A stretch of 64,000 nt of DNA from contig CM126214.1 of assembly GCA_052327205.1 (NCBI GenBank), forward strand, positions 138,198,001 through 138,262,000. The letters are read 5' to 3'. Below the pieces are notes generated by a model. That model made no database searches, had not been told where the DNA came from, and was given only the letters and a program-made list of their open reading frames with translations. Shown here piece by piece: positions 3,782 through 46,900 of the stretch (position 1 is the stretch's first letter; the number at the start of each line of letters is the position of its first letter). A program made the position numbers and the translations under genes. Origin of the DNA: Somniosus microcephalus (lineage: Eukaryota).

Positions 3782-4937
3782 TGTTAGAAATCAGGGGTGT
3801 TCAAAATGTATATGGTTATGCAAACAAAATTGTGACACGAATAATGCGGTGTTTACATGATGGTTTTAGAACTGGAGACAAAAAGTCTCTTCAGACTAGT
3901 ATTAGAATAACTGGATAGAGGCTTAGAATCAGCTTGTGTTTTGGTTCTCTGCAGATGTTATAGCATTCTGCAGTGTGATGGTCATAAATAATCTTGTTTC
4001 CAAGCTAATTATCTGCTGTTTTCTAGCTAGGATTTCAACCTTGTTTGTGTATCTCCAATTGGACCAACTAAGGCTCAATGCCCACTTTTCTTTTATTATT
4101 GCTAATAACCATGATACAGTATAATGCTACGGTAGGAATTGGAATGCTACGGTAGGAATTGGAGTTAGCTTAACAAAATTGCTTGTGAAGATAATTAAAA
4201 GTTAATTAGTATAAAAGACATAAAATAAAAAGGAATTTAGGGGAGTTAAGGTATTCATCTCAGGATGGGGCGGTTTGCTAGATGAAAGTGAGATAACAAC
4301 TAGCTGAAGTGGGACACATAACTAAAAGGGTACAAGGCCAGGCCTAGTACCAAATGTGCCAGGGAAGATAGGGACCAGGGAGATAAGACATGAATTCCAA
4401 AAGGAAGAACCGTCAGAAAGATTAAACAATAAGACAAATTGGATGAGATCATGAGACCCCTTTTGGGGAAGGCATTCATCCAAGAATTGAGACACAGAAC
4501 TCGATGCCCAATTGGGTACAGAGGTTTTAGGGGAGCCTCTAAGTTAGATGGTCTTTTCAATAATTTGGCTTCAGGCCCACCCCTAAAAAGAGAATAAAAG
4601 TAACACTGAGTGCTTACGCACACAGACGGTGGAGGGAAGAGCCAAGCAGAAGTTAGGCTGGTCGAACGCTCTTTCGAGTGATCCCACTCTCACCATCAGA
4701 GGTTCTAGACGAGAAGAAAGGCCGCAAGCCAGAGAACTGTTCACGCACGCCAGCCATCTGTCCGATCGGGACCAGTACCAGCTGCTTGTCACAGTTGTAT
4801 GTTTTTGCTGTATAACCAGCATGTTACATTCCATCTTAAACTCTGATTAAACACAATATACCCACCATATTGGTTTGCAGTCGATCCTGATTATTTGAAA
4901 GACTAGAGATAAGCTACTAATTGGCCTAATCGCCACA
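3782..4937 (+). mobile_element. Probable solo LTR (1156 bp; ERV- or Gypsy-like)
   Basis: Starts TGTTAG and ends CCACA. Flanks CCAC/CCAT form a 4-bp TSD with one mismatch, and removing the insert restores the CR1. ATTAAA near 4846. Internal 20-bp tandem duplication at about 4123-4162. Confidence 0.72.
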
Positions 4938-5411
4938 CCATCTTCTGCCACTCTGAATAGCTACCTTTACCCTAACAAAAGAAATGCAAATTAAAGTGGC
5001 TGGTATGTAGCTGAAGCACTTAGTTTGCCAGAAGTCCATGTCATTGTGCGGTGTGTGCGTGGAGGGGTGGTGAGGGGGGGGGGGTATGGCTGAGGAAAAA
5101 GAAAGTAAGAATATCTAGTGATCAGGGTTAATGATAGTATTAAAATGAAAAATGAAATATAGTTACTGATCTGCTAGGCAGCATCTAAAGTAAAAATTAC
5201 ATTTTAAAATTGTGGTGCTGAGAGGGGCTTAAATTAATATCGGGATCCAGTAAAATATGGGCACTCATTTTAATCCCCCACTTTCCTTGAACCATTTCCC
5301 CCATAGATCACCATTTAAAAAATGTAAACACTAATGTAATAAAATCTTCATGAACGGATACGGATCAGACTGCAAAAAATGTTTACAATAAACTCAACAA
5401 ACCACACCTAC

Positions 5412-7139
5412 CTTCTTGTCCAATATTAGGATCTCTACTATTACTGGGTCCACAAGTACTATACAGTGAAGCAAGATCTTGCGGGTTGTAGGACTTCAAA
5501 ATTTTCAATACATTCCAATGCGAGTCAACTCCATTTGAATCCAAGGCTGATTCTGGCTTAGATGATACCCCGGAGTTTCTTGACTGAACAGGGGACATCT
5601 CCTGAGATAATAATTTAACATTTCTTCCTTGGACACCCCTCCTTGTTCCAAATGTAAGCTGATCATTTCTTAAAGGACTGTTTACTTTCATTCTTTTAGC
5701 TGTAGGCTCATGCGAGTCCAAGCCTCCCTGATTCTCTGACACATTAGTAAGACACATTTTGCTAACATTTGGCGCCCAAAGACTATCATATCTAAACAAA
5801 GGTCCCCTAGGTCCATCAGATTCGTAGTCCAACTTAATGCCAGGCCTTTCCAACATATTTCTCTTACTATTACCAGCTTCTGAGGATTCACTTCTTTCCA
5901 TTTTTTGCACCACATCTGGCATTTGCCTAAGTTCAGTATGTATGGATCCATAGTTTTCTAGATGTACATTAGGATTTTGGGTAGCCTTGAATGCTTTAAA
6001 TTCGCCTGAAGATCTAGATCCTGCTGCAGAGGGAAGGAGATTATTGCACAGAGATTGGTGTGATGATGATGATGGTGATTTTGCCTTCCCAAGCAGCACG
6101 TTTGAAGCATCTGGTGAAGCTGCTGGTAGTGGTGACCTGGTCCGACGAGAAAACTTTCTGTTCATTTCTTTGGTGGCAAGCAAAGAAGAAACATCTTGAC
6201 CTAATAGTGCAGGAGGGCATCCAGTGCGTCTGCTTTTAACTGACCCACCACGAACAGCACTTCGAATTCCATTTATTGGACTTGGGTCAGGATTATATTT
6301 GTGTACCAACCTTTGGTGCATCACTAAGACCTCTGGGTACAAAGTTCTGTAAGTACAAAATGGACACGTGTTGCTCAGTAAGGCACTCTTGGAAACTGAG
6401 GTAGATGCATTTCCCAGAGGACTACCACCACTACACAGGCTTTGCTGATATATTGTGGTGCAGAGATTCAAGGGCTTTTCCAATAAGCTGGATTCAAATC
6501 TATCACAGTCGTCCTCCATATTACCTCTAGCACTAATGTAGCATTGGTCATTTATTGAAGCAGATTCCAACTTTATGCTTCTAGCATTATTCTGTTGCAC
6601 ACCATCTTCTGACAGTTCTTCCATTAAACATTCCTCCAAAACCTTGGACTCGTCTAGGTCTATAACCGCCTTTGGATCAGAGTCACTCCTGTGGAACTCA
6701 CTCACCACCTTTTCATCCTTTGATTTCTCACGATATGGCAGCACTGCATTACAGAAGATCCGGCGATTGTTATGAAAACTAGTATTCCTGTTCAAGTCTG
6801 GGAACGGTCTATTCATATTTGAAAACATAACATTTTGAAAAATCGGACGAGAAGAATGAGTAGGTTTGAGTTTCCTCCGAGGAAAGTCTGCATCTAAATC
6901 TTTGGCACTGCCCAAAGAATCTGTAATCAACTTCTTCGAGTCCACAGATTCCTGAACAGATTCATCACTTCCTTTTGGTACGACTTCCAATTTCGGAGAT
7001 GCCATTGAACTCTTCAGAGGATCACTCTTTTCTTCAGCCTTTTTCTGCTCACCCTTGTGGTGTCGCTCCAAGTGATATTTAAGTGAGGTCTTTTGAGCTG
7101 CAGCATAGTCACAGAGAGGACATCTATGGGGTTTTTCAC
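5412..7139 (-). CDS. ZNF217: ZNF217 large coding exon (1728 bp; two fingers and CtBP-binding motifs)
   Basis: Acceptor TTTTGCTTCAG|GT. Reads GEKPHRCPLCDYAAAQKTSLKYHLERHHK...KPLNLC...CPFCTYRTLYPEVLVMHQRLVHKY...RRTGCPPALLG. Donor GAAG|GTAGGT at 5412/5411. Next exon not identified in 1-5411. Confidence 0.93.
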
Positions 7140-8336
7140 CTGAAGCAAAAACAAGAAAAAGGTTTTAAATATACTATATTTAGGGTCTACCAATCGTTAC
7201 ACTACAATTCACAATCACACCCAAAAATCACATTTTTGTCACGAGTCCTACCCTCTGTAATTGATTTTAATACCGTTTCAATCTTGCATATCCATGCTCT
7301 ACCTGGAAGGGAGAAAAGAGTGCTTAAAACATCTAATGCATGATGAACCAGAGATAGACCTCTCCTAAAGAGAAAATAAAAATTTCACAACTCTGGTTTG
7401 TTTTGGTGGTTGGGAGGGAGTTGGGGGGGGGGGGAAAGAGAAAATGAAACTGCAAAGCTGGGGTTGGGTTAGTTTTTTTTTATATAAAAGTACAACTTAA
7501 GGCAACCAAGAATCATTAATGACTGCCATGGAGTTCTCCACAGGTCAGGCTTCAGCATACCCACCTGGCCATGAATACCAAGGAGATAGGGTCAGAATGT
7601 GGACATAGCTATCAAGGGGAGACGGTTAAAAAGTCTAATGTGGAGCAGTGAACGGTGCCGAGCACACAACAGTTTCGGACACCGGAGGTCCTCAGTGAGC
7701 CATGAAAATGCCAGAATCTTTAAAAGTCAATAGTGCTGCATTTCAAGTTACCCCATTGGGATGATGCAGAGAATAAGTGGGTTTATTAAACAATAAATTG
7801 GGTAAAATTATTACAGATGGTCAGGATATGCCAGATATTTTGAATGGATTTTTCACATCACAAAATGAGGACTGCAGGCTAACTATAGTAAATGGGATTA
7901 AGCCGTCCATAACACATAAAAGCTAGTAAAGATGGTGCTGAGCAAAAACTGGAAGGATGAGATGGCTACAAGGCTTCTAGGCCAGAAGGGATTAATTCCT
8001 TGAGGATTCTGGAATGTACAGTATGATGAAATTCATCATTTTTTTGCTGATAAAATATTGGAGTAGTGCCTAAAGACCGGAAGATAGAAAGTGTACGTTT
8101 GATATTTAAAAGAGTAGCAAGTGCGACAAATTTCAGGTCTGCCTTAAATATTCTATCAGCCACAGAAGTGTTGGTCACTCCTGAAAGTGGTCCATTATCC
8201 AGGGGTCTGGATATCCAGTTATACAATAGTGTAACCCAGGGCTATAACAATAGAGCCCCCTTTGTAATCTGAACTGGATAGGACGTCTTTCCACATCCCA
8301 TCTTTCAGTGGGTGGACTGAAACACTTGTGATATGA

Positions 8337-17015: not shown

Positions 17016-17814
17016 GAAGCAATTTTTAACTGATTTAAGCAAGACAGCTTGATAAATACTTTTTTTTTTTTTTTAAAAGAAGTTACCAGGACCAAACATA
17101 TTTAAAATAGTTTCAAATTCACATTTGATCAAAACCCACAAAATGTATTTGAATCGAATGGCTTGGACCCTTCCTCAGACATCAGGCAAAGGCAAACCAA
17201 TTAAAACCTGTAATGGAATATGATTTCTAAGTGAAGTGTGTGTTAATCACTTATGAATATTAGCATAATGTTAGAAGCCAAGAACACAAAAGTGCTTAAA
17301 ACAAAAAAAACATTGTGACACATTTAACAGTTTTAAGACAATATACTCCACTCCAGTTCCTGGTTTTTATTGCTATACATTTCAAATACATTGACATATA
17401 AGTAACCAAACAGGAGTCTAAGAATCTGAGATTTAATGAAACCTTTTAAATATTGTAGCCCAATATTCTCACTCCTTAAAAAAAATGTACGCTTCACATT
17501 TGTTTTAACCGCTACCCACTGTCCCTCAAGACATGAATTAATTGGAGAGAACCCAATTGCACATTTTAGCAAGAAACCACTTCTTTCTAGGTGTACACTT
17601 TCAAACCTTAAAAGACAATTTTTTTGGAAGGCTACTAAATTTGACAATAGATCACCAAAAATGTGGGCTCTTCTATCTTGAGATACTGTGGCAGAAGTTT
17701 GCACAGATTCTTATCCAAGAAGAAAGAATTTTCAAATTCAGAAAATTGAGTGTTGGCAAGAAATGTAAACGAGCATTAGACCCAAGCATCCCAATAGGTT
17801 TATAACCTTCCTAC

Positions 17815-19588
17815 CTGATGAAAGTCCTTCTCCTAGTACTCCATCTTCTGAGCCCTCTTCAGAGCCCTCCTCAGGTTTGTCAGCTCCTGGGCTATGGTCT
17901 TCAATTGTTGTAACGGAGTCTATGGATTGAGTGCCAGCTTCACTGCCATCAACTGAATTTGGAGGATTCTCCACACTTTTCCTGCCTTTCCGGTGTACTC
18001 GGGAGTGGAGCACTAACTGATGGTAGGTTCTAAAAATCTTACCACACATTGCGCAGTTGGTCGGTTTAAGTTTATTCTGGGTCAATTTCGAGTCAATGTC
18101 CACATCTCCCATTGGAGGCAGTCCATTCTGGCCTAGACTGCTGTTTTTGATTTTAGACTTTTCTAGGTTCTCCAAGGTAGGACCATGATTGCCTTTCTCC
18201 ATGGTCCAATGCTCACTGGAATCCTCTTTGTCGGAAGGTTCCTCTTCATTCTCAGAGTTTGCCATTTGCCCTGGATCTTTCACATTCTCTCGGCCAACTG
18301 CCACTTTTCCCTTAGTAGCCAGCTGCCAAGCTTGGTACGTATTGAAAGGATCAAGTTCAGATATCCATTTTCCCAGCTTCACAGGCTTGTTACAATTGTG
18401 TGACAAAAGGGGATTTAAATTCAGCATCTGCAGGAATGCTTCCTGCGATATCGCAACTTCCTGATTTAAGGAGTAATCGTCCAGTCTATCATCATCGGTG
18501 AGATCTTTGTTGTGAACTTTACTATGTTCTTTCAAGCTGTCTTTATTAGGGAAAAGAAATCCACAAACCATGCACATTTTGTAAGGAGAGGCAACGTTTC
18601 CTGAAATTGGTTCTTGCATAGCAACATTATTGATAGTTGCAGGACCTTCTGAATCCTGCTGTGATTTGCCCCTAGCTTTACTCGAATGCGTTCGCATATG
18701 GTTTTTTAGAAACCAAGGCTCCTTAAAACGTCGGCCACATACATTACAACCATAGGTAAATGAATCCTTGTGTTTCCTCATGTGTGTTTCCAGACTCAAA
18801 GCACTCTCGCAGGACAGTCCACAAACTTTACAGCTGAGCTCACCATCTTTGTTTTCATCATTTGCCTCTTGTTCTGGAGAACTTGCTGTAATATGCACCT
18901 CTTCGATAGGACTCAACCCTTCCTCCACCTGGAGGACTGCGGGCTCACATAGCGTAGGCCTGTGCTGAATCACTACATGGTGACGGAGTTCTTCCGAGTG
19001 TTGAAAGCCTTTATTACAAAACATACAAGGCAGAGGTGGACATTCTTCAGCTTGAACTGCAACATTTCCTTCCAAACCGTCAAAAGACAAAGCAACACCA
19101 TTTATTGGCTGATCAGTCTCAATCATGTCAGCATCATTAGGCCTGATGCTATTAGACAAAGTATTTGGGCTAGCAAAGCTTGTAGGTGACAGATTGGCCT
19201 TATTTCTTCCAGTTTTTCTTCCTTGTTGCAAATGGTCTAGTTTGTGCTTTCGAAGATGAATTTTCAAATTTGATTTCTGGGACGTTCTATGGTCACAAAA
19301 GGGACACTTAAATGGCTTTTCATTTGTATGCATGTGCATGTGCTGTGCTAAAAGGCTACTGAAAGGAAAGCACTGGTCACAAATTGAACAATGATGTTCA
19401 ATAGAATTTTTTGCATCAGAAAAATCACCAAGTGTTAAGTTCACATTTTCTTCGACATCCACAGATGTTTTCATTATGGAGCTCTCCGTAGATTTCATCA
19501 CAAATTCATGAGTAGGCTGGTCAGTAAACCAAGGCATAAGCTCTTCTTCAGATGTTCTTTCCTGGTCGTCTTGATATTGTATTCTCAT
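17815..19588 (-). CDS. ZNF217: Zinc finger protein 217, first coding exon (591 codons + 1 nt; 7 C2H2 fingers)
   Basis: ORF 17738..19639 has ZNF217 hallmark segments CMFC...QHRPTLCEPAVLQVE, HKDSFTYGCNVCGRRFKEPWFLKNHMRTH, PYKMCMVCGFLFPNK, LDPFNTYQAWQLATKGKVA and CGKIFRTYHQLVLHSRVH. First in-frame ATG is at 19588 (true start not proven). Phase-1 donor TCAG|GTAGGA at 17815/17814. Candidate acceptor TCTGCTTTCAG| at 19691/19690. Confidence 0.93.
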
Positions 19589-20059
19589 CACATTATTTTG
19601 AGACAATACAAAGCTTTGGAGTTTCAATTTCAATCCCAAAAGCTTGCTTTTCTTGTGTCCTTGTACTTACAGATGCAGGGGTTTCAATTGCTGAAAGCAG
19701 AATACAGAGCATTCAAAATAAGATTAAAACTATCATTTAAACCGTTAATATATTGTGCAACAAAAGAACTGATTGTTTAAACAATATGCTTCAGTGCCAA
19801 AAATAACTATGGATGGTAAAAAAAGTTCCAATTCAAAACAAGATACTTTGCACAAATTTGTATAACTACTTTCCACTGCAATGTAAACGTCAGGGACATA
19901 AAGAATAATAAGATTAGAAAATCCAAACCAAGTTACTCTTTGGCAGGCCTTATCAAAGGCAGCCCCAGCTCGAAACCTAGTAAACATTCACTTCTATGCA
20001 GTTGTTTCTGCTAAACTGGAGACCTGGAAGTCGGACTCCATTTTTCCTTTGGACTTATC

Positions 20060-34600: not shown

Positions 34601-37600
34601 CACCAAATTCACATTTCCCCAATTTAAATTATTGCATCATTTAAATCTTTTGACACAAGTGACTTCAAATTATCAAGCGTGGACTGTACATCAAATTGAA
34701 AACATTGAACCAATTTGAATGGGTTAAAGCAGGAAGTTGCAGTCTTTAATTTACTTTTCCTGGCCCTTTATCTTACATTCTTTACTCATTTATTATCACT
34801 CCTTTCTGTAAAATTTGTTGATTACTCACCTGGTGGCAGAGCTAGTTTTTTCCCCCCAAATGACTAAGTGAGACAGCAATAAGGGCTCTACAACTAGCCC
34901 AAGTATTAAGCAGCAAAGGGGTTGGGTGATGAAAAGGAAAAGCGTTATATAGAATTCCCATCCCTGACAATGAGCATCAACAAGTAATTTGGCTTCTAGA
35001 GCATCATGGCCTAATTCAATCCTGGATTCACCACAAATGTATATAACAATCTGGTGTGGGAACTCTGTCCTCTCTCTCACTTCATGCAGCAGCCAAATTT
35101 GCAGAGCTCCACTAGAACCCCAGCCAAGATTAACTAACTTAGTACAGGGTCTGTATATTTCAGTATTACACCAAACAGTGCATTCAACAGGAGCCATCAG
35201 GCACGAATTATAATTTTTTTTTTATTTTTTAAACTTTCAATACAGAAATCGACAGTATAAATAGAAGGCACTGGCAGGAAAAGGCCGGATATTGGAGAGT
35301 AAATCAACTCACGATGTGAAGCATAAAAACTACAAATTCATTATTTTAGCACCATTCCATTCATCAGGATGGAGAACTTTAAACGTTGAGCTACAGAGGT
35401 AAAGAGCTCACATTTGTTCCCTGAAGGCTATCTGAAGTTTCTCAAGCCTGGGCCAACAACCGAGAGAGAGAGAGTTCAAATCTCACCATGGCAGTTTGAG
35501 AATTTAAATTCAATTTTTAAAAAAGCCAGCATCAATAAAAGTGACCAGGAAGCAGTCATATTGTCATAAAAACCCAACTCGTTCATTCATAAGAGAACAT
35601 AAGAAATAGGAGCAGGAATAGGCCAATCGGCCCCTCGAGCCTGCTCCGCCATTCAATAAGATCATGGCTGATCTGATCCTAACCGCCAATCCACTACCAC
35701 AGAACCATCTCCTGAATCTAACAGAATTAGACACACGAAATAGGAGCAGGATCAGGCTACACGGCCCCTGAGCCCGCTCCGCTACCCACAGGGCCATGAC
35801 CGATCCGAACCTAGACTCATGTCCAAATTCCTGCCCGCTCCCCGTAACCCTTAATTCCCTTTACTTCTAGGAAACTGTCTATTTCTGTTTTAAATTTATG
35901 TAATGATGTAGCTTCTACAGCTTTTTGGGGCAGCATATTCCATGGACCTACCACCCTCTGAGTGAAGTAGTTCCTCCTCATCTCAGTTTTGAAAGAGCAG
36001 CCCCTTATTCTAAGACTATGCCCCCTAGTTCTAGTTTCACCCATCATCGGGAACATCTTCCCCGCATCCACCCGATCCAACCCCTTCACAATCTTATATG
36101 TTTCAATAAGATCACCTCTCATTCTTCTGAACTCCAATGAGTAGAGTCCCAATCTACTCAACCTCTCCTCATATGTCCATCCCCTCATCCCTGGGATTAA
36201 CTGAGTGAACCTTCTTTGTACTGACTCGAGAGCAAGTATGTCCTTTCTTAAGTATGGACACCAAAACTGTACGCAGTATTCCAGGTGCGGTCTCACCAAT
36301 ACCTTGTACAACTGAAGCAATACCTCCCTATTTTTATATTCTATCCCCCTACCAATGAAAGCCAACATTCCATTGGCCTTCTTAATCACTTGCTGCACCT
36401 GCATACTAACCTTTTGAGTTTCGTGCACCAGGACCCCCAGATCCCTTAGTACTTCCCAGTTTCTTGCCATTAAGATAATAACTTGCTCTATGATTTTTCC
36501 TGCCGAAAACTGCATAACCTCACACTTTCCAGTATTGTATTCCATCTGCCAAATCTCTGCCCACTTACTTAGCCTGTCTATGTCCCCTTGCAGGTTTTTT
36601 TTATGTCCTCCTCACTCACTACTTTCCCTCCCATCTTAGTATCATCTGCAAACTTTGATATGTTACACTCGGTCCCGGTCCCCTCCTCCAAATCGTTAAT
36701 ATAGATTGTAAAGAGTTGGGGACCCAGCACTGACCCCTGCGGAACACCACTAGTTACTGATTGCCAGTCTGAGAATGAACCATTTATCCCAACTCTCTGC
36801 CTTCTGTTAGATAGCCAATCCTCTATCCATACCAGAATATTACCCCCAATCCCGTGATTTTTTATCTTAAGCAATAATCTTGTGTGGCACCTTGTCAAAT
36901 GCCTTTTGGAAGTCTAAATACACTACGTCCACTGGTTCCCCTTTATCCGCCCTATATGTTACTTCCTCAAAGAACTCCAGCAAATTTGTCAAACATGACT
37001 TCCCCTTCATAAAACCATGCTGACTTTGTCCTATTAAATGATGATTATCCAAATGTCCTGTTACTGTCTCCTTAATAATGGACTCCAAAATTTTACCTAC
37101 CACAGGTGTTAGGCTAACCGGTCTATAGTTTCCTGCCTTCTGTCTACTGCCCTTTTTAAATAAGGGTGTTACATTAGCAGTTTTCCAGTCTGCCAGGACC
37201 TTTGCTGAGTCCAGGGAGTTTTGGAAAATTACCAATGCATCCTGTAATGAAATCTGTTTGTCTTGATCCTGTATTCGTTGAGCACTCATATATATTACCC
37301 TCCCCCACTGTGTATAGTTTCACTTCCTCTTTCCCGACTAACCTGGGAGGTTCCAGGTCTTGGCTCCGCCCCTGACTTCTCTTACATAAAGATCCCAGGA
37401 TCTGTATGACTCATTCCTGTGAACCAGTCGGCGTGTTGAGATGTTAGCTCTGATCTTAGTGATTAAAAGCCAACTTGTTTAAGTCTATAACTTCTAGTTT
37501 TGTGGTTATTGAAGGCCCATCAATTTTAATCACTAAAGAATACTAGGATGGATCGACTCCTAAAACCAGAGCGTCTGGACTTGGATCCACATTCTACTGA

Positions 37601-39212
37601 AGCATCAAATCAATTTGGACACTGGCTCAAATGCTTCGAACTCTTTGCGGGGGCCTCATCCGCTAGCGAGGTAGATAAACTGAGTCTACTGACTACTCGC
37701 GTAAGTCATCGGATTTGTTCGTTCATCCGGGACGCCACCGCTTACACGGAGGCCATCACTATCCTGAAGGCCCAATACCAGAGGCCGGTAAACGAAGTGT
37801 ACGCCAGACATCTGCTGGCTACACGCAGGCAGCGACCAGAGGAATCAATGGACGATTTCTTACAGGGCCTAAAGGACCTGGTCCGGGACTGTAACTGCAA
37901 GGCCGTGACGGCCAACGCGTACTCTGACGAATTGGTCAGCGATTCCTTCATCACGGGCCTCAAATCGAATTATATCCGGCAGAGACTGCTGGAGAAGGAG
38001 GTCCTGGACTTAAAAAAGGCAGTGGCCACTGCGCGATCGCTGGACGTGGCCCAGAGAAACTCGGACTCTTATTCTTCCGGCCATGCGGCCCTCACCGCCT
38101 CGTGCGCGCCGAGGGGGCCGCCATCTTGGAATCAGCCATCTTCCCCATCCAGGTCTCAGACCAGCTCTACGCCGCCGGAGTCCCCACAGAAGTTCACCCA
38201 GGAGTCCTACTGCAGCGGCAATGTCTCGAGGCCCGAAATGCTACTTCTGCGGCCAGGCCAAGCACCCCAGACAACGATGCCCAGCGAAGGACGCTACATG
38301 CGTCAAATGTAAGAAAAAGGGGCATTTTAGCAAAGTCTGCACGGGGAATCCGATTTCCAACTCCGTCACCGCCTCGTGCGTGCTGTGCGGGCCGCCATCT
38401 TGGGATCTGCCATCTTTTCCCGACTCAACGGCCGCCCAGGGCCCAACAGTGGCTTCGATCACGGTGGATCAATCCAGGCCACACCCGTTGACAAAATCCA
38501 TGATGGACATACAGGTAAACAGGAATTTAACGAAATGTTTAATTGACTGTGGGAGTACCGAGAGTTTTATCCACCCTAGCCTGGTACGGCGGCACTCATT
38601 AACGGTAACCCCTACACGGAGCAGAATTGCTATGGCTGCTAAGCCCCACACTTCGGACATTTTGGGCTACTGTGTGGTAACACTGACTGTAAAAGGAACG
38701 GACTACAAGGATTTTAAACTCCGTGATGCCAGAACTCTGTTAATGTAATCTTGGGCCTGGACTTCCAGTGCCACCACAAAAGTGTCACGCTAGCATATGG
38801 CGGGTCCCAGCCGCCACTCACAGTCTGTGGCCTATCAACCTTAAAAAGCAGCCCGCCCTCTTTATTCGCTAATCTTGCTCCGAACTGTAGGCCCATAGCG
38901 ACCAAAAGTAGACGGTAGAGTCTGGAAGACAGACACTTTATCAAGGCGGAAGTGGACAGACTCCTGCGGGTAGGCATTATTGAATGCAGTACCAGCCCGT
39001 GGCGTGCCCAAGTAGTCATAGTTAAAAATAGCGAAAAGAAACGGATGGTAATTGACTACAGTCAGACTGTTAATATTTATACCCAGCTGGACGCCTACCC
39101 TTTACCCCGCATATCAGAAATGGTCAACCAGATTGCGCAATACCGAGTCTTCTCGACTATCGACCTCAAATCCGCGTATCACCAGCTCCCCGTTAGAATG
39201 GAGGACCGCCCA

Positions 39213-42200
39213 TGATATACCTATCAATTCCTCCAATAAAAGGCGAAGAGTTACGAAGGTGACTAAAGGTTTTTATTGACTAAATAACAGAGCCCACTCT
39301 CGTGGGTGATCCGATCCAAGCAGGAGGAATACCAGTCAGTCGCTCACCTTTATACCTGGCCTGGTGGGTGGAGCCAAGGCGGAGTCGGCGGTGGTCATCC
39401 CAGGTATAGCAGTGTGGCAAGAGGCGACCTCGTACCGTGATACAATAGTGGTCAGTGATACAGTTATAACGAACAGTGGTGAACAGTGCTAACTACTAAC
39501 AGTGATACGATAGTGAACGTGGTTTACCACATTCACCCCTTGTTTAGAATTAAGTCCGGCGGGGTGAAGTGTACTACCAATTCTGGTAGGTCAGTCTGTC
39601 CGGAGGCTTCGTAAGCCTCTCCGATCGCCGCAGCGGTGGTGTTGCCTTATCCGGTGCTGGTGCCTTATCCGGTGTTGATGCTGGTGTTTGCGTGGTCGGC
39701 GAGGGCTCGTGGGGTTCCGGCATGCCGTCTACCTGGGCTGGGGTTGGGGGGGGTGGTGGCGGTGTTTCCGGATCGGCTGAGGGTGCGAGGTCTCGTAGGG
39801 AGACAGTGTCCTCCCGCCCGTCTGGGTACGCCACGTAGGCGTACTGGGGGTTGGCGTGCAGGAGGTTCACCCTCTCGACCAGGGGGTCCGTTTTATGGGC
39901 CCTCACGTGTTTCCGCAGCCAGACCGGCCCCGGGGCGGTCAGCCAGGTTGGTAGAGTGGTTCCCGTAGTCGACTTCCTGGGGAAAACGAACATTCGTTCA
40001 TGGGGGGTGGTGTTAGTGGCCGTGCAAAGTAATGACCGGATGGAGTGCAGCGCTGTCGGGAGGACTTCTTGCCAGCGGGAGGTTGGGAGGCCCTTAGACT
40101 TTAAGGCTAAGAGGACGGCCTTCCATACCGTCGCGTTCTCTCTTTCCACCTGACCGTTACCTCTGGGGTTGTAGCTGGTGGTCCTGCTTGCTGCAATACC
40201 TCTCTCTAGGAGGAATTGCCGGAGTTCCTCGCTCATGAAGGAGGAACCCCGGTCACTGTGTATATAGTTCGGGAACCCGAACAAGGCGAAGAGGGCATTC
40301 AGGCACTTGATGACCGTGCTACTGGTCATGTCGGGGCAGGGGAAGGCAAAGGGGAAACGGGAGTACTCATCAACGATGTTGAGGAAGTACACATTACGGT
40401 CAGAGGACGGGAGGGGCCCCTTAAAGTCGATGCTCAGGCGCTCGAAGGGGCGGGTGGCCTTGATCAGGCTTGCTCGGTCCGGCCTATAGAAGTGCGGTTT
40501 GCACTCCGCACAGGTCTGGCAGTTCCTGGTCATGGTCCTGACCTCCTCGATGGAGTAGGTCAGGTTGCGGGCCTTAATGAAATGGTAGAGTCTGGTGACT
40601 CCGGGGTGGCAGAGCTGGTCGTGGAGGGTCTGAAGCCTATCGATATGCGCGCTGGCGCATGTCATTCGTGAAAGGGCATCAGGGGATTCGTTCAGCTTGC
40701 CTGGCCGGTACAAGATCTCATAATCGTAGGTGGAGAGCTCGATTCTCCATCTCAAAATCTTGTCATTCTTGATTTTGCCCTTCAGCTTGTTATTAAACAT
40801 GAAAGCCACCGAACGCTGGTCGGTGAGGAGGGTAAATCGTTTGCCTGCCAGGTAGTGCCTCCAGCGCCGTACTGCCTCCACGATCGCCTGGGCCTCTTTC
40901 TCGACCGACGAATGTCGGATCTCGGGGCCCTGTAGGGTCCTTGAGAAGAAGGCCACTGGCCTCCCCTCCTGGTTTAGGGTGGCGGCTAAGGCGAAGTCGG
41001 ATGCGTCGCTCTCCACCTGGAAGGGGATGGACTCGTCCACTGCGTGCATCGTGGCCTTGGCTATGTCTCCCTTAATGAGGGAGAAGGCCGCGCACGCCTC
41101 CTCCGTGAGGGGGAAGGAAGTGGCTTTCAGGAGGGGTCTGGCTTTGTCCGCGTAATTGGGTACCCATTGGGCATAGTAGGCGAAAAGCCCCAGGGTTCTC
41201 CTAAGTGCTTTAGGGCAGTGGGGGAGGGGTAGCTCCATGAGGGGGCGCATTCTTTCTGGGTCGGGGCCGATGATTCCGTTCTCCACTACGCAGCCGAGGA
41301 TGGCAAGGCGTGTGGTGTTAAACACGCATTTCTCCTTATTGTAGGTGAGGTTCAGCCGTTGGGCCGTACGGAGGAATTTCTCCAGATTCGCGTCATGTTC
41401 CTGCCGGTCGCGGCCGCAGATAGTGACGTTATCTAGGTAGGGGAATGTAGCCTGCAGTTCGTTCTGGTCAACCATCTGGTCCATCTCCCTTTGGAAGACC
41501 GAGACCCCATTAGTGACACCGAAGGGGACCCTAAGGAAGTGGTATAGGCGCCCATTCGCCTCGAAGGCGGTATACTGGCGGTCCTCAGGGTGGATAGGGA
41601 GTTGGTGGTAGGCCGACTTCAGGTCGATGGTCGAGAATACTTTATACTGTGCAATCTGATTGACCATGTCAGATATGCGGGGGAGGGGGTATGCGTCCAG
41701 CTGGGTATATCTGTTTATGGTCTGGCTGTAGTCGATGACCAGGCGGTTTTTATCGCCGGTCTTTACGACTACGACCTGGGCACGCCAGGGGCTGCTGCTC
41801 CCCTCGATAATGCCCTCTTTCAGGAGGCGCCGCACCTCAGAGCTAATGAAGGCTCTGTCCCCGGCGCTATACCGCCTGCTCTTGGTAGCGACGGGTTTGC
41901 AGTCAGGGGTAAGGTTAGCAAACAGAGAGGGTGGCGGGACCTTGAGGGTGGAGAGGCTGCAGGTGTTACGCGGTGGGCGGTTTAACGTTTGCTGGTTGTT
42001 GACTGTGAGTGGGGGGAGGGGTCCACCGTATGCTAGGGTTACGCTTTGGAGGTGGGATTGGAAGTCCAGCCCTAGTAGGACGGCAGCGCAGAGATGGGGG
42101 AGGACGAGGAGTTTAAAGTTTTTATACTCCGTGCCCTTAACCGACAGGGTCACGACACAGTAGCCGCTGATGTCCGTGGCGTGGGACCTCGATGCCATCG

Positions 42201-43913
42201 AGATTCTGCTGCGCGTTGGTAGGACAGAGAGGGAGTAGTGGCTCACCGTGTCTGGGTGGATGAAGCTCTCCGTGCTTCCGCTGTCGAACAGGCAGGTCGT
42301 GGCGTGGCCGTTCACTTTGATGTCCATCATTGACTTGGACAGATGGTGCGGGCGGGCTTGGTCCAGGGTGACGGAAGCTAGTGTGTAGCTGAGCGAGTCG
42401 TTGTCATCTGCGGGCGAGGCGGTCGGGCGTGGTGAGTAAAATGGCGTCTCCCACGAGGTAGGGCAAAATGACGGAGAAGATGGCTGCCCCCGTAGCTCAC
42501 ATGAGGCACTATTGGGGTCGGTTGCCTTAATCAAAGATGGCCGCCCCCATGACTCATGTGTGGGGATGCTGGCCTCAGTTGCCCTAAACAAAGATGGCCA
42601 CCCCCATGACTCATGTGTGGGGATGCTGGCCTCAGTTGCCCTAAACGAAGATGGCCGCCCCCATAGTTCGCATGCGGCACTGCTGGCCTCTGAGGATCCG
42701 CTCCTGCAGGCCTTGGAGAAGTGGCCTTTCTTCAGGCAGGTTCTGCATGTGGAGTTCTTGGCTGGGCAGCGCGACCTCGGGTGCTTCTCCTGGCCACAAA
42801 AAAAACAGCCGGCGGCCCGATCGCGGATGCCCGATGTCGGGGCCGGTGCCGGGGGTGGCGGGGCCGGTCGGGTCCGGGACGCCGACGCAGAGGTAGGTCC
42901 CGGGGGCGGCGCTGGGAAGGGTGCTGTGGTAGGGGTCGGGCCCGAGTCCCAGGGTCGCGAGCAGTACCTGGTGAATGCTTCCTGATCTTGGTGGGCCACT
43001 TCCAGGGAGATAGCGAGGGCTTCAGCTTTTTCCATGCTGAGGTCTTTAGCTTCCAGCAGTCTTTGCCGTGAGTACTCGGACCGTAGGCCTTTCAGGAATG
43101 CGTCGCGGATATTATCTTCAGTATTTTCGGCTGCCGACACCGATTTAAAGTCACAGTTCCTGGCGAGTGCATATAGCGCCTGTGAGAATTCGGCTACTGA
43201 TTCTCCTGGCTGTTGCGGCCGTGATCTTAGGAGGTGCCTAGCGTACATGTAGTTTACCGGGGTCCGGTACTTCTGTTTCAGCAGGTTGATGGCGGTCTCG
43301 TAGGTAGTCATGTCCTCGATGAGAGTGTATACTCTCGGGCTCAGTTGCGCCTGCAGGACACTTAGTTTGGATGCCTGAGGGACGCTGGATTCTCTCAGGT
43401 ATGATTCGAAGCAGACCAGCCAGTGTTTAAAGTCTGCGGCTGAGTTTGCTGCTCGTGGGTTCAGGTCCAGGTACGGCGGTCTGAGGGCTCGCAGCCAAGC
43501 TGGCTGGTGTGGCTGTGCTCCTGGGAGCTGCGCTGGTGGCTCCTCCGCCGGTTGTGACTCGTTGTCGGACATCATTAAATTTAGTCAATAAAATTGATAT
43601 ACCTATCAATTCCTCCAATAAAAGGCGAAGAGTTACGAAGGTGACTAAAGGTTTTTATTGACTAAATAACAGAGCCCACTCTCGTGGGTGATCCGATCCA
43701 AGCAGGAGGAATACCAGTCAGTCGCTCACCTTTATACCTGGCCTGGTGGGTGGAGCCAAGGCGGAGTCGGCGGTGGTCATCCCAGGTATAGCAGTGTGGC
43801 AAGAGGCGACCTCGTACCGTGATACAATAGTGGTCAGTGATACAGTTATAACGAACAGTGGTGAACAGTGCTAACTACTAACAGTGATACGATAGTGAAC
43901 GTGGTTTACCACA
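39213..43913 (-). mobile_element. Intact Ty3/Gypsy LTR retrotransposon B (4701 bp, probably Mag-like)
   Basis: Two 319-bp LTRs (43595-43913 and 39213-39531) with TG...CA ends, identical by eye. 5-bp TSD GCCCA (39208-39212 and 43914-43918). PPT AAACAAGGGGTGAA before the 3' LTR. One uninterrupted gag-pol ORF. Confidence 0.98.
39574..43575 (-). CDS. Gag-Pol polyprotein, 1333 aa (Gag with two Zn knuckles, PR, RT, RNase H, IN)
   Basis: Knuckles CFFCGQEKHPRSRC and CRTCLKKGHFSKAC. Protease LFDSGS. RT YPLPRI/IDLKSAYHQ/VPFG/YLDN. RNase H SDASD/EKEAQA/TDQ/PDALSR. Integrase HHCC plus IDF/SDRG/VERE. Gypsy domain order, with no env or chromodomain. Confidence 0.97.
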   Translation of the reverse strand: MMSDNESQPAEEPPAQLPGAQPHQPAWLRALRPPYLDLNPRAANSAADFKHWLVCFESYLRESSVPQASKLSVLQAQLSPRVYTLIEDMTTYETAINLLKQKYRTPVNYMYARHLLRSRPQQPGESVAEFSQALYALARNCDFKSVSAAENTEDNIRDAFLKGLRSEYSRQRLLEAKDLSMEKAEALAISLEVAHQDQEAFTRYCSRPWDSGPTPTTAPFPAPPPGPTSASASRTRPAPPPPAPAPTSGIRDRAAGCFFCGQEKHPRSRCPAKNSTCRTCLKKGHFSKACRSGSSEASSAACELWGRPSSFRATEASIPTHESWGWPSLFRATEASIPTHESWGRPSLIKATDPNSASCELRGQPSSPSFCPTSWETPFYSPRPTASPADDNDSLSYTLASVTLDQARPHHLSKSMMDIKVNGHATTCLFDSGSTESFIHPDTVSHYSLSVLPTRSRISMASRSHATDISGYCVVTLSVKGTEYKNFKLLVLPHLCAAVLLGLDFQSHLQSVTLAYGGPLPPLTVNNQQTLNRPPRNTCSLSTLKVPPPSLFANLTPDCKPVATKSRRYSAGDRAFISSEVRRLLKEGIIEGSSSPWRAQVVVVKTGDKNRLVIDYSQTINRYTQLDAYPLPRISDMVNQIAQYKVFSTIDLKSAYHQLPIHPEDRQYTAFEANGRLYHFLRVPFGVTNGVSVFQREMDQMVDQNELQATFPYLDNVTICGRDRQEHDANLEKFLRTAQRLNLTYNKEKCVFNTTRLAILGCVVENGIIGPDPERMRPLMELPLPHCPKALRRTLGLFAYYAQWVPNYADKARPLLKATSFPLTEEACAAFSLIKGDIAKATMHAVDESIPFQVESDASDFALAATLNQEGRPVAFFSRTLQGPEIRHSSVEKEAQAIVEAVRRWRHYLAGKRFTLLTDQRSVAFMFNNKLKGKIKNDKILRWRIELSTYDYEILYRPGKLNESPDALSRMTCASAHIDRLQTLHDQLCHPGVTRLYHFIKARNLTYSIEEVRTMTRNCQTCAECKPHFYRPDRASLIKATRPFERLSIDFKGPLPSSDRNVYFLNIVDEYSRFPFAFPCPDMTSSTVIKCLNALFALFGFPNYIHSDRGSSFMSEELRQFLLERGIAASRTTSYNPRGNGQVERENATVWKAVLLALKSKGLPTSRWQEVLPTALHSIRSLLCTATNTTPHERMFVFPRKSTTGTTLPTWLTAPGPVWLRKHVRAHKTDPLVERVNLLHANPQYAYVAYPDGREDTVSLRDLAPSADPETPPPPPPTPAQVDGMPEPHEPSPTTQTPASTPDKAPAPDKATPPLRRSERLTKPPDRLTYQNW

Positions 43914-46900
43914 GCCCATACACCGCCTTCGAGGCGAACGGGCGCCTCTACCATTTTCTCAGAGTGGCCTTCGGGGTAACAAATGGGATCTCGGTCTTCC
44001 AACGTGAGATGGTCCGCATGGTTGACGAGAATAAACTACAAGCTACCTACCCCTATCTGGACAATGTCACTATCTGCGGGCACAACCAGCAAGACCACGA
44101 TCTAAATCTTGCGAGATTTTTAAAAACTGCCCTAAAGCTGAATCTAACCTACAACGAAGACAAATGCGTCTTCAACACAACCCGTCTCTGTATCCTCGGC
44201 TGTGTGGTGGAAGATGGGGTAATTGGACCGGACCCTGACCGATTACGCCCCCTAAAAGGAACTGCCCCTGCCACACAATCCCAAAGCTTTAAAAAGGTGC
44301 CTGGGATTTTTTTCATATTATGCCCAATGGGTGCCCAATTACTCTGATAAGGCCCGACCCCTCATTAAATCAACGTCCTTCCCACTATCAGCTGAAGCTC
44401 GGGAGGCTTTCACCAGTATTAAACAGGACATTGAAAGGGCTGCAGTGTGTGCAGTGGACGAATGCATTCCCTTTCAAGTCGAAAGCGATGCGTCAGACTT
44501 TGCCTTAGCTGCGACCCTCAATCAGGCTGGGAGACCTGTGGCCTTCTTCTCCCGAACCCTTCAGGGACCTGAAATCAGGCACTCTTCTGTTGAGGCGGCG
44601 GCACAGGCTATAGTGGAGGCAGTGCGGCACTGGAGACAGTACCTAGCCGGCAAACGTTTCACCCTGCTCACCGACCAGCGGTCGGTGGCTTTCATGTTTA
44701 ATAACAAAGGGGGAAAATCAAGAATGACAAAATACTCAGGTGGAGGATCGAACTATCCACGTTCGACTATGATATTATGTACAGGCCGGGAGCCCTTAAT
44801 GAACCCCCAGACGTCCTATCGTGGGGAATGTGTGCCAGCATTCATACGGACAAATTACAGGGTCTCCACAACGACCTCTGTCACCCAGGGGTCACCCGAC
44901 TATACCATTTCATGAAGTCCTGCAATCTGCCCCACTCCATCGAGGTGGTCAGGGCAATGACCAGAGCCTGCCGCATCTGTGCGGAATGAAAGCCTAGTTT
45001 CTACAGGCCTGACCGTGCACACCTTATCAAAGCCACACGGCCATTCGAGCGCCTAAGTCTGGACTTCAAGGGACCCCTTCCCTCTGCCGACCGTAACGTA
45101 TACTTCCTCAATATCATTGATGAATATTCCCGCTTCCCCTTCGCCATTCCCTGCCCAGACATGACCAGTGCCACGGTCATCAAGTGTCTCTGTAATCTAT
45201 TCTGCATGTTTGGCATGCCGAACTACATACACAGCGATAGGGGGACGTCATTCATGAGTGACGAGCTGCGCCAGTTCTTGCTCTCGAAGGGGATAGCCAC
45301 TAGCAGAACCACTAGCTACAACCCCCGGGGTAATGGGCAAGTGGAAAGGGAGAATGCTACTGTTTGGAAGGCTGTCACGTTAGCCTTAAAGTCAAAAGGC
45401 CTTCCGACCTCCTGCTGGCAGGAAGTCCTCCCAGACGTGCTCCACTCCATAAGGTCTCTGTTATGTACTGCCACTAACGCTACCCCTCACGAAAAGATGT
45501 TCGTTTTCCCCCGGAAATCCACCTCGGGCATATCTCTACCCGCGTGGCTGACGTCTCCGGGGACAGTACTATTGCAGAAGCACGTGAGAGGCCATAAAAC
45601 GGACCCCCTTGTGGAAAAGGTACAGCTCCTCCATGCAAACCCTCAGTACGCCTATATCGAATACTCTGACGGGCGAGAGGACACTGTTTCCATAAAAGAC
45701 CTCGCTCCCTTGGGGAGCGGAGAGAACGATGGGAGACTACCCGATGAAGACCTACACTACAAAGAGACAGGACGCCCAGAGGTATCAATACCCAACTTTA
45801 ACCTGGAGGACACTGCAGATAACCTGGAAGACACTGCGGAGGCCCGGACAGCGGAGGAACCAGAATCCACTCCCCTAGGAGGCACCCCAACCGGCTTTGC
45901 GCCGATCACCGAGAACTGCAAAACCTCCTGACAGACTCACTTATACCAACTTTTAAGAAACATCAGCCCGATGGACTAAATCTATAGAAGGGGTGAATGT
46001 AATGAAATCTGTTTGTCTTGATCCTGTATTCGTTGAGCACTCATATATATTACCCTCCCCCACTGTGTATAGTTTCACTTCCTCTTTCCCGACTAACCTG
46101 GGAGGTTCCAGGTCTTGGCTCTTGGCTCCGCCCCTGACTTCTCTTACATAAAGATCCCAGGATCTGTATGACTCATTCCTGTGAACCAGTCGGCGTGTTG
46201 AGATGTTAGCTCTGATCTTAGTGATTAAAAGCCAACTTGTTTAAGTCTATAACTTCTAGTTTTGTGGTTATTGAAGGCCCATCACATCCACAATCCGTAC
46301 CGCCACTTCCCTTCATGTCCTTCAGGGAAGAAAACCTGCGGTCCTTACCCAGTCTGGCCTATGTGTGACTCCAGTCCCAGACCAATATGTTTGACACTTC
46401 ACTCTGAAGTGGCCTAGCAAGTCACTCAGTTGTACCACCACCTTCTCAGGGAAACTAAGAATGGGCAATGCCAGCCTTGCCCACATCCTGAGAATGAACA
46501 AAACAAAATCATGCTTCTACCAAAGGAAGTGGCTTTTCAGGCCACATGATCTTTTTCTGTTCCTGAAACTTCAATCATGGATGCCACTAGCATCAGGCCA
46601 TCCTCTAGCCAGACAGCAAAAGGAGCTAGCCCAGTCTAGATAATAGTACAATGCTCCAATCAAAAAAAGGACCAAGATGCACTGAGGAGTCGTCAGCAAC
46701 ACTTCTCAGCAATATATTTATTTCAAATACAATATAAATTGTCAGGTACAAAGATTTCTAGGTGTAATATCAATTGGTTTCTATACATGAACACCGCCAT
46801 TTTGAAAATATGACATTCTGTTCAGTCTTGAAGACAGAGACCCATTAAGAACTCCCACTGAGCATCCTAAAGAAATCAAAAGCAATTATAAAACCGAGCA

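Follow-up and report, generated by a model that had tools for sequence, protein, structure and literature searches.

Primer sites complementary to their own long terminal repeat, in place of a tRNA site, in a clade of animal Ty3/gypsy retrotransposons

We analysed a 64,000-nt stretch of the Somniosus microcephalus genome (contig CM126214.1, positions 138,198,001 to 138,262,000; hereafter the window) that holds element B, an intact Ty3/gypsy retrotransposon on the minus strand, bounded by long terminal repeats (LTRs) and without a chromodomain. Judged from their sequences, B and nearly every relative that could be checked have no host transfer RNA (tRNA) primer site and carry instead a site that pairs over about 13 nt with their own LTR. 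That this self-complementarity has been kept by compensatory change throughout the clade is strongly supported by the comparisons below. The best explanation, which we favour with modest confidence, is that this clade of animal Ty3/gypsy elements with a short leader and a single open reading frame would prime minus-strand DNA synthesis with its own RNA in cis.

Results

The primer site of element B pairs with its own LTR

Element B shows the marks of a Ty3/gypsy element, namely a TG...CA LTR pair, a target duplication and a polypurine tract, together with the domain order protease, reverse transcriptase (RT), RNase H, integrase by Pfam; the best solved relative of its protein is Ty3 Gag-Pol (E 3e-59). 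The features are collected in Table 1. A first-pass annotation, made from the letters alone, had placed the end of the 5' LTR at TATCA, followed by one A (43594) and a 15-mer (43593-43579) described as the exact reverse complement of LTR positions 43667-43653, a segment that we call the arm, and all of these coordinates hold. We also recovered its AATAAA at 43659-43654 within the arm, its TATAAA at 43736-43731, 69 nt ahead of the arm, and its short leader, with the first gag ATG starting at 43575, the 20th base past the LTR. No TGG follows the LTR of B, in keeping with the claimed absence of a tRNA site, and the 3' end of the arm does face the U5 (unique 5') boundary, as would be expected of a minus-strand primer.

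The duplex of arm and primer site, helix P1, is 15 nt long in B, compared with a longest match of 11 nt in 5000 dinucleotide shuffles of the LTR against the leader. Folding of this region, which the same annotation had suggested, gave z = -3.5 and a mean pairing probability of 0.93 for the primer site. The same site was present in 20 of the 20 best own-genome copies, the window's own included (40 scored among 655 candidates).

A second element of the same clade, element A, is frameshifted and carries B inserted in its RT region. The junction of A is laid out as in B, with CA, one A and then a 13-nt site that pairs with its own arm, a length reached by only 1 of 5000 shuffles. The LTRs of A and B can be aligned only around the LTR end, and two pairs of the A duplex differ from those of B on both sides.

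Table 1 Features of elements B and A in the window.
Feature	Position	Strand	Remark
5' LTR of B	43595..43913	-	319 nt, TG...CA; 0 mismatches to 3' LTR
3' LTR of B	39213..39531	-	arm copy 39285-39271, no primer site after it
Target duplication of B, TGGGC	43914-43918 and 39208-39212
Two GC-box-like hexamers of B	43748..43764	-	upstream of TATA box; motif positions, putative function
TATAAA of B	43731..43736	-	sequence motif; predicted start near 43706
Primer arm in LTR of B, 5' strand of P1	43653..43667	-	exact complement of 43593-43579
AATAAA inside B arm	43654..43659	-	sequence motif; putative poly(A) signal
ACCT just past predicted cut, 5' strand of helix P2	43649..43652	-	clade motif AAA/RCY
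U5 segment of B	43615..43624	-	can pair with poly(A) hexamer in either LTR
AGGT, candidate 3' strand of P2	43601..43604	-	6 nt before LTR end
Single A between LTR end and primer site of B	43594	-	recurs where LTR pairs fixed ends independently
Primer binding site of B, 3' strand of P1	43579..43593	-	no TGG
Single frame of B, gag-protease-RT-RNase H-integrase	39574..43575	-	1333 aa; no env
Polypurine tract of B	39532..39545	-	precedes 3' LTR
5' LTR of A	37243..37522	+	target duplication CATCC
CATAAA of A	37385-37390	+	71 nt before arm
Arm of A	37456-37468	+	holds ATTAAA
Primer binding site of A	37524..37536	+	13-nt exact complement of own arm
3' LTR of A	45998..46284	+

Arm and primer site change together across the clade

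We assembled 79 loci, comprising A, B, 46 own-genome loci chosen by gag-start patterns, and the 31 of 78 contigs from metagenomes or contaminated genomes that reach the gag start. Six had no scorable junction (one of them L105, which was misanchored), leaving 73. At 61 of the 73, the site forms at least 10 contiguous Watson-Crick pairs with the arm from its first base, and 8 more pair at 12 of 13 positions. The remaining four are L095, L132, L147 and L174; at the arm there appears to be an insertion in L147 and a deletion in L174. The scored loci include 24 distinct 13-nt primer sites. The junctions were located by a CA-A-TTT-like motif, which makes the missing TGG in this set circular; for A, B and ten loci with paired LTRs the LTR end was fixed independently, agreed within a few bases and was again not followed by TGG. 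A tRNA primer for the clade is very unlikely.

For closer comparison, 27 representatives were picked by eye, with siblings dropped and one poor copy (L132) kept. The arm follows the consensus NNAGYNNWTWAAA, then RCY, and the motif AAA/RCY (the slash marking the arm end) is present in 26 of the 27. With the register taken from this motif alone, positions 4-12 all match in 23 of 26 cognate pairs of arm and site, compared with 0 of 644 non-cognate pairs. Over positions 1-13 of the 26 representatives (338 positions) we counted 330 Watson-Crick pairs, one G-U pair and 7 mismatches, with several pair types at positions 4-9, 12 and 13. The edge of the pairing is sharp: position 13 still pairs in 23 of 26 representatives and position 14 in 14 of 26. 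At pair 8 of a single host family, 1048 copies carry changes on both sides, 13 differ in the arm alone and 24 in the site alone, and all 100 of the double-changed copies that are listed are compensated. Chance pairing of the arm with the primer site was considered as well and is rejected on the shuffles and the non-cognate comparison.

As a separate observation, AG(T/C) at positions -11 to -9 of the arm (window 43663-43661) is kept in about 24 of 26 arms, more strictly than pairing would require, and could represent an initiator-like motif or serve as an RT determinant.

The clade lies apart from chromodomain-bearing proteins

A protein search with B returned 70 sequences, 49 of them at 677 bits or more (44-70% identity), and the named sources among these close relatives are ray, shark, isopod and Trichinella. 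Below the 49 came two Trichinella matches to the gag region (about 300-325 bits) and then other gypsy proteins at 259 bits or less, including chromodomain-bearing fish proteins. We found no chromodomain match in B or in the 49 close relatives, while distant matches carry PF00385. In a FastTree phylogeny built from 79 sequences over the RT-RNase H region and rooted at the midpoint (no named reference element included, Tf1 and sushi-ichi being absent), the clade sits on a long stem of 0.83 with support 0.91, apart from the chromodomain-bearing proteins. Both results bear out the earlier placement of B outside the chromoviruses. An outgroup with 30% identity, L124, has an ordinary TGG primer site.

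The relatives' reading frames are often 1150-1280 aa long. Thousands of copies of related families populate the 6.4-Gb host genome, and further relatives occur in nematodes and marine samples; none was found among 10 candidates from IMG/VR. Clade members also turned up in contigs filed as bacterial genome bins (L117-L123), probably through host contamination. Among the relatives, a GC-rich repeat seems to have entered the LTR of L027 and of L147 at GCC or GGCC, once right after the arm, and several marine relatives (L051, L054, L062) have TTACCT, the antisense of a 5' splice-site-like sequence, upstream of the arm.

A second helix at the predicted cut

The bases just past the arm can pair with AGGY farther along the LTR to form a second helix, P2. 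Its summed length across families is 103, compared with 74 +- 5.5 and a maximum of 93 in 1000 shuffles, and it tolerates G-U pairs (14 of 79). When folded as a hairpin in cis, P1 reached a mean probability of 0.6-0.99 in 25 of 26 cases.

The arm usually holds a poly(A) signal

AATAAA or ATTAAA lies within 19 of the 26 arms. The remaining seven lack a canonical hexamer in the arm: two have one a short way downstream, another is a damaged copy, and in four none occurs in the vicinity. In its 5' context the hexamer was predicted to be paired in all 27 folded families (unpaired probability 0.01-0.12), and with the primer site removed it was freed in 15 of the 27 (unpaired at least 0.4, host flank left out of the fold). 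B is an exception, with an unpaired probability of 0.12 compared with 0.19 without the primer site, so that the hexamer stays 81% paired, because U5 positions 43624-43615 can pair with it in either LTR.

The first-pass annotation had argued that P1 could mask the 5' poly(A) signal since the partner is absent after the 3' LTR. For B the latter point fails, given the second partner present in both LTRs. The proposal of masking draws support from the 19 arms and 15 folds above and is weakened by the seven arms without a hexamer and by B itself. On these folds, masking of the 5' LTR poly(A) signal is plausible as a second job of the duplex and not as its conserved core.

Where transcription may start

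Of 13 own-genome representatives, 10 have a TATA motif starting 71-90 nt ahead of the arm, which would put the predicted start 40-60 nt upstream of the arm. A distance of 25-35 nt occurs in none of the 13, and in two a further TATA motif is present at 15 nt. A GC box lies 88-90 nt before the arm in B and recurs in A, L129, L134, L164 and L169. It is therefore fairly likely that the arm of B lies inside R, the repeated region of the LTR, and not at the cap. The earlier suggestion of an internal arm, about 40 nt past the start, thus gains indirect support from the host families, while the RNA reads mapped no start and L105, with its short LTR, speaks for the opposite.

Two raw RNA runs that share a species label with a data set containing the sequence were compared with the window. 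In one of them, X8, 56 reads differ upstream of 43516 and 17 molecules end at 43558; these reads probably derive from an expressed subfamily with another gag N-terminus. A search of the genome for poly(A)-tailed retrocopies of two families found none.

A model of priming in cis, and the evidence against it

The exact start at the U5 boundary, the polarity, the strict pairing and the fixed motif at the arm end are what a primer needs, and it is on these grounds that we read the arrangement as self-priming in cis. The arm very probably is the primer, and it is likely that the primer is made in cis by a cut. Transcription of B and its host-genome relatives would start about 40-60 nt upstream of the arm, leaving the arm, usually with the poly(A) signal, inside R. 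Once the leader had been made, the arm would pair with the primer site, hiding the 5' LTR signal as well. The RNA would then be cut at the end of the duplex, at AAA/RCY, most likely by the element's own RNase H as in Tf1, possibly aided by the short helix of RCCT with AGGY stacked on the cut. The freed 3' end would prime a strong-stop DNA of 20-65 nt, which could jump to the 3' R by way of the stretch from the cut to the poly(A) site. Cleavage, its enzyme, the start site and masking are all steps that we infer. Published work, cited here and below from excerpts of the sources, describes an RNase H cut that frees the primer in Tf1 (PMC7175516).

On the Ty3 route, where the DNA transferred is a second strong-stop product that ends at U5 (PMC5371799), a long capped primer would not necessarily hinder the second strand transfer. 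In Tf1, about half of the cDNAs retain a copy of the primer site (PMC11042837), and a primer site templated from the arm would fit Tf1 and not the Ty3 route. The two active sites of Ty3 RT lie about 13 bp apart (PMC5371799), a spacing that the duplex of about 13 bp matches and to which it may be linked. A fuller version, which we put forward tentatively and as doubtful, is that self-priming in this clade arose independently of the Tf1/sushi elements, that a capped 55-75 nt piece of R ending in its own poly(A) signal would serve as primer, that one 13-bp duplex would both block premature polyadenylation and mark the cut, and that copying of the primer would rewrite the site in each cycle. Such rewriting would explain the near absence of G-U pairs.

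Several observations weigh against the model. P2 is short, and an unbulged helix of 4 bp forms in only 16 of 26 cases; neither A nor B prefers it when folded, and P2 is weak for B itself, whose minimum-energy fold favours other partners. The Tf1 pretzel has a third duplex, 3' of its primer site; in the B clade such a duplex is not above chance (148 compared with 144 +- 5 in shuffles), and the 48 nt 5' of the arm show no conserved structure (mean z -0.14). The families share ancestry, so that the counts cannot be treated as independent events; all 1048 double-changed copies belong to one subfamily. The distance of the TATA motif in the host families comes without a shuffle control, and in the marine relatives no TATA motif recurs at a constant distance. 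The RNA reads cover A and B on both strands and from mixed subfamilies, and among the matches listed we found no start or poly(A) site. Finally, L105 has an 80-nt LTR with only 37-39 nt of it before the arm, and a duplex of 11 bp whose first base is the conserved A in AG(T/C), an arrangement that resembles the geometry of Tf1. L105 itself is a tandem element (99-178, 179-245, 3961-4040); in one of its copies the primer site is present twice, flanking a palindromic insert, and the second helix of L105 is ACCAT/ATGGT.

Alternative explanations

The strongest alternative, which we consider unlikely, is that these elements are a new lineage with ordinary Tf1 geometry. Transcription would then start at the arm's 5' end and the first 11-14 nt would be the primer, as the first 11 nt are in Tf1 (PMC7175516); the hexamer would stay silent at the 5' LTR through its nearness to the cap, and AG(T/C) at -11 to -9 would be initiator-like. 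Consistent with it are the abrupt stop of pairing at 13 nt, the A at -11 and the G at -10 in 24 of 26 arms each, the short LTR and duplex of L105, and a U- or GU-rich stretch just upstream of many arms, a possible upstream element of U3 (unique 3'). Against it stands the TATA motif, often with a GC box, kept at 71-90 nt in LTRs that can barely be aligned and missing at 25-35 nt. Moreover, covariation extends to positions 12 and 13, which requires an RNA that begins no later than -13, and 22 of 26 arms have a pyrimidine there. A pyrimidine at a cap site is unusual.

Priming might also act in trans or from the 3' end, with a short LTR transcript (of a 5' or solo LTR) or the 3' R trimmed back to AAA. 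We regard this as improbable, although the arm is present in both LTRs and mostly holds the poly(A) signal, and thousands of related genomic copies could supply short RNAs. The cis hairpin forms readily in nearly all families, arm and site are tightly linked within copies, and P2 is above chance and needs U5 45-50 nt past the hexamer in several host families. In B, L129, L134 and L132, whose P2 partner lies 6 nt before the LTR end, that partner would be missing from a polyadenylated 3' end.

More improbable still is a duplex with no role beyond hiding the 5' poly(A) signal or regulating the translation of gag, with something else as the primer. The predicted pairing of the hexamer in every folded family, its release in 15 of the 27 and, in B, the end of the duplex 4 nt ahead of the gag AUG would suit such a role. 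Yet the duplex is kept without a canonical hexamer in six intact cases (L161, L167, L051, L053, L057, L058), it always starts one base past the LTR end, which masking would not need, and its distance to gag ranges from about 17 to 100 nt. G-U pairs are nearly absent from P1 (1 in 338 positions) compared with P2, and no alternative primer site stands out. Priming by half of a host tRNA, or by some different small RNA, with an incidental LTR match, is highly improbable, for although some copia lineages use tRNA halves (PMC6317226) and our comparison with host tRNAs covered 63 scored matches, mostly of one tandem array, each of the 24 different sites matches the LTR of its own element and none of the others, and no TGG follows the independently fixed LTR ends.

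Surroundings and other features of the elements

The reading frame of B contains three to four 57-nt tandem repeats (42477-42690), giving a 19-aa repeat between zinc knuckle and protease. A 5-bp hairpin with a GAGA tetraloop ends a few bases before the B arm (43675-43688, minus strand), without conservation in other families. Rfam gave no match over 37000-46500 at E up to 1, and a protein atlas returned only generic gag clusters. Element A lies within a fragment with a reverse transcriptase match (36867-37319, minus strand), giving a three-level nest at 37243-46284 of the window. Two long exon-like C2H2 zinc finger frames, one with matches of ZNF142 type, occur at 5383-7164 and 17738-19666 (minus strand), and the nested elements may lie in an intron of, or upstream of, a zinc finger host gene.

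Discussion

The self-complementary primer site is a real feature of the whole clade, and it would work like that of Tf1 in a lineage outside the Tf1/sushi group. Tf1 primes itself, with a central duplex flanked by two more (10.1101/2022.12.06.519325). The B clade shares the Ty3/gypsy domain order with Tf1 and Tf2 of Schizosaccharomyces pombe, Tj1, Tosmo and the Tf1/sushi chromoviruses (10.1101/2022.12.06.519325, PMC4600332, PMC7175516), and like that group it has a primer site complementary to its own 5' LTR, no tRNA site and a putative extra helix next to the predicted cut. Unlike that group, it has no chromodomain and forms a separate long-stem RT-RNase H clade. It differs from Tf1 itself in pairing over about 13 bp and not 11, in an arm that usually has a poly(A) hexamer and probably lies 40-60 nt inside R in the host lineage, and in showing no detectable duplex 3' of the primer site.

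The HIV-1 5' LTR hides its AAUAAA in a base-paired stem within R-U5, and this virus is primed by tRNA. The 5' LTR hexamer of the B clade is likewise predicted to be paired, but its main partner is the primer site. In layout the relatives resemble Cigr-1 (short LTR, one frame of about 1200 aa, very little non-coding sequence), which makes that clade a candidate affiliation. The Cigr-1 clade of Ty3/gypsy is known from Ciona and also from molluscs, and its primer site is not described in the excerpt of the source (PMC6238403). Self-priming has been predicted where a stretch of at least 10 nt, beginning 0-5 nt past the LTR, is complementary to the LTR (PMC6317226), and B shares this arrangement with Tcn1 and with the plant Ty1/copia elements of the TAR group (Houba, Osr-1). 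Those elements belong to chromovirus and plant copia lineages, and the excerpts describe no overlap with a poly(A) signal there. Skipper has an unexplained non-tRNA primer site (PMC5006619).

In the excerpts of the literature, self-priming is reported for Tf1, Tf2, Tj1 and Tosmo, the sushi group, Tcn1 and TAR/Houba, and for no animal gypsy clade outside the chromoviruses. The same excerpts describe no primer arm that holds a poly(A) signal, in a search that left Repbase and GyDB outside, where an earlier mention may exist. A term search of the seven supplementary files of PMC13524379 gave no match, which is weak evidence.

Among Ty3/gypsy elements, priming without tRNA has so far been tied to the Tf1/sushi chromoviruses, and the B clade is unrelated to these, animal and abundant. 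Annotation tools that need a tRNA site would score B-type elements as having none. Control of retroelements by tRNA fragments aimed at primer sites is a theme of PMC7472051, and B-type elements would escape this form of host control. If the arm is indeed internal and its hexamer a poly(A) signal, one duplex would solve two problems of an LTR element. The clade also bears on how often self-priming arose and on whether hairpin priming preceded tRNA priming, as has been proposed (PMC3601003).

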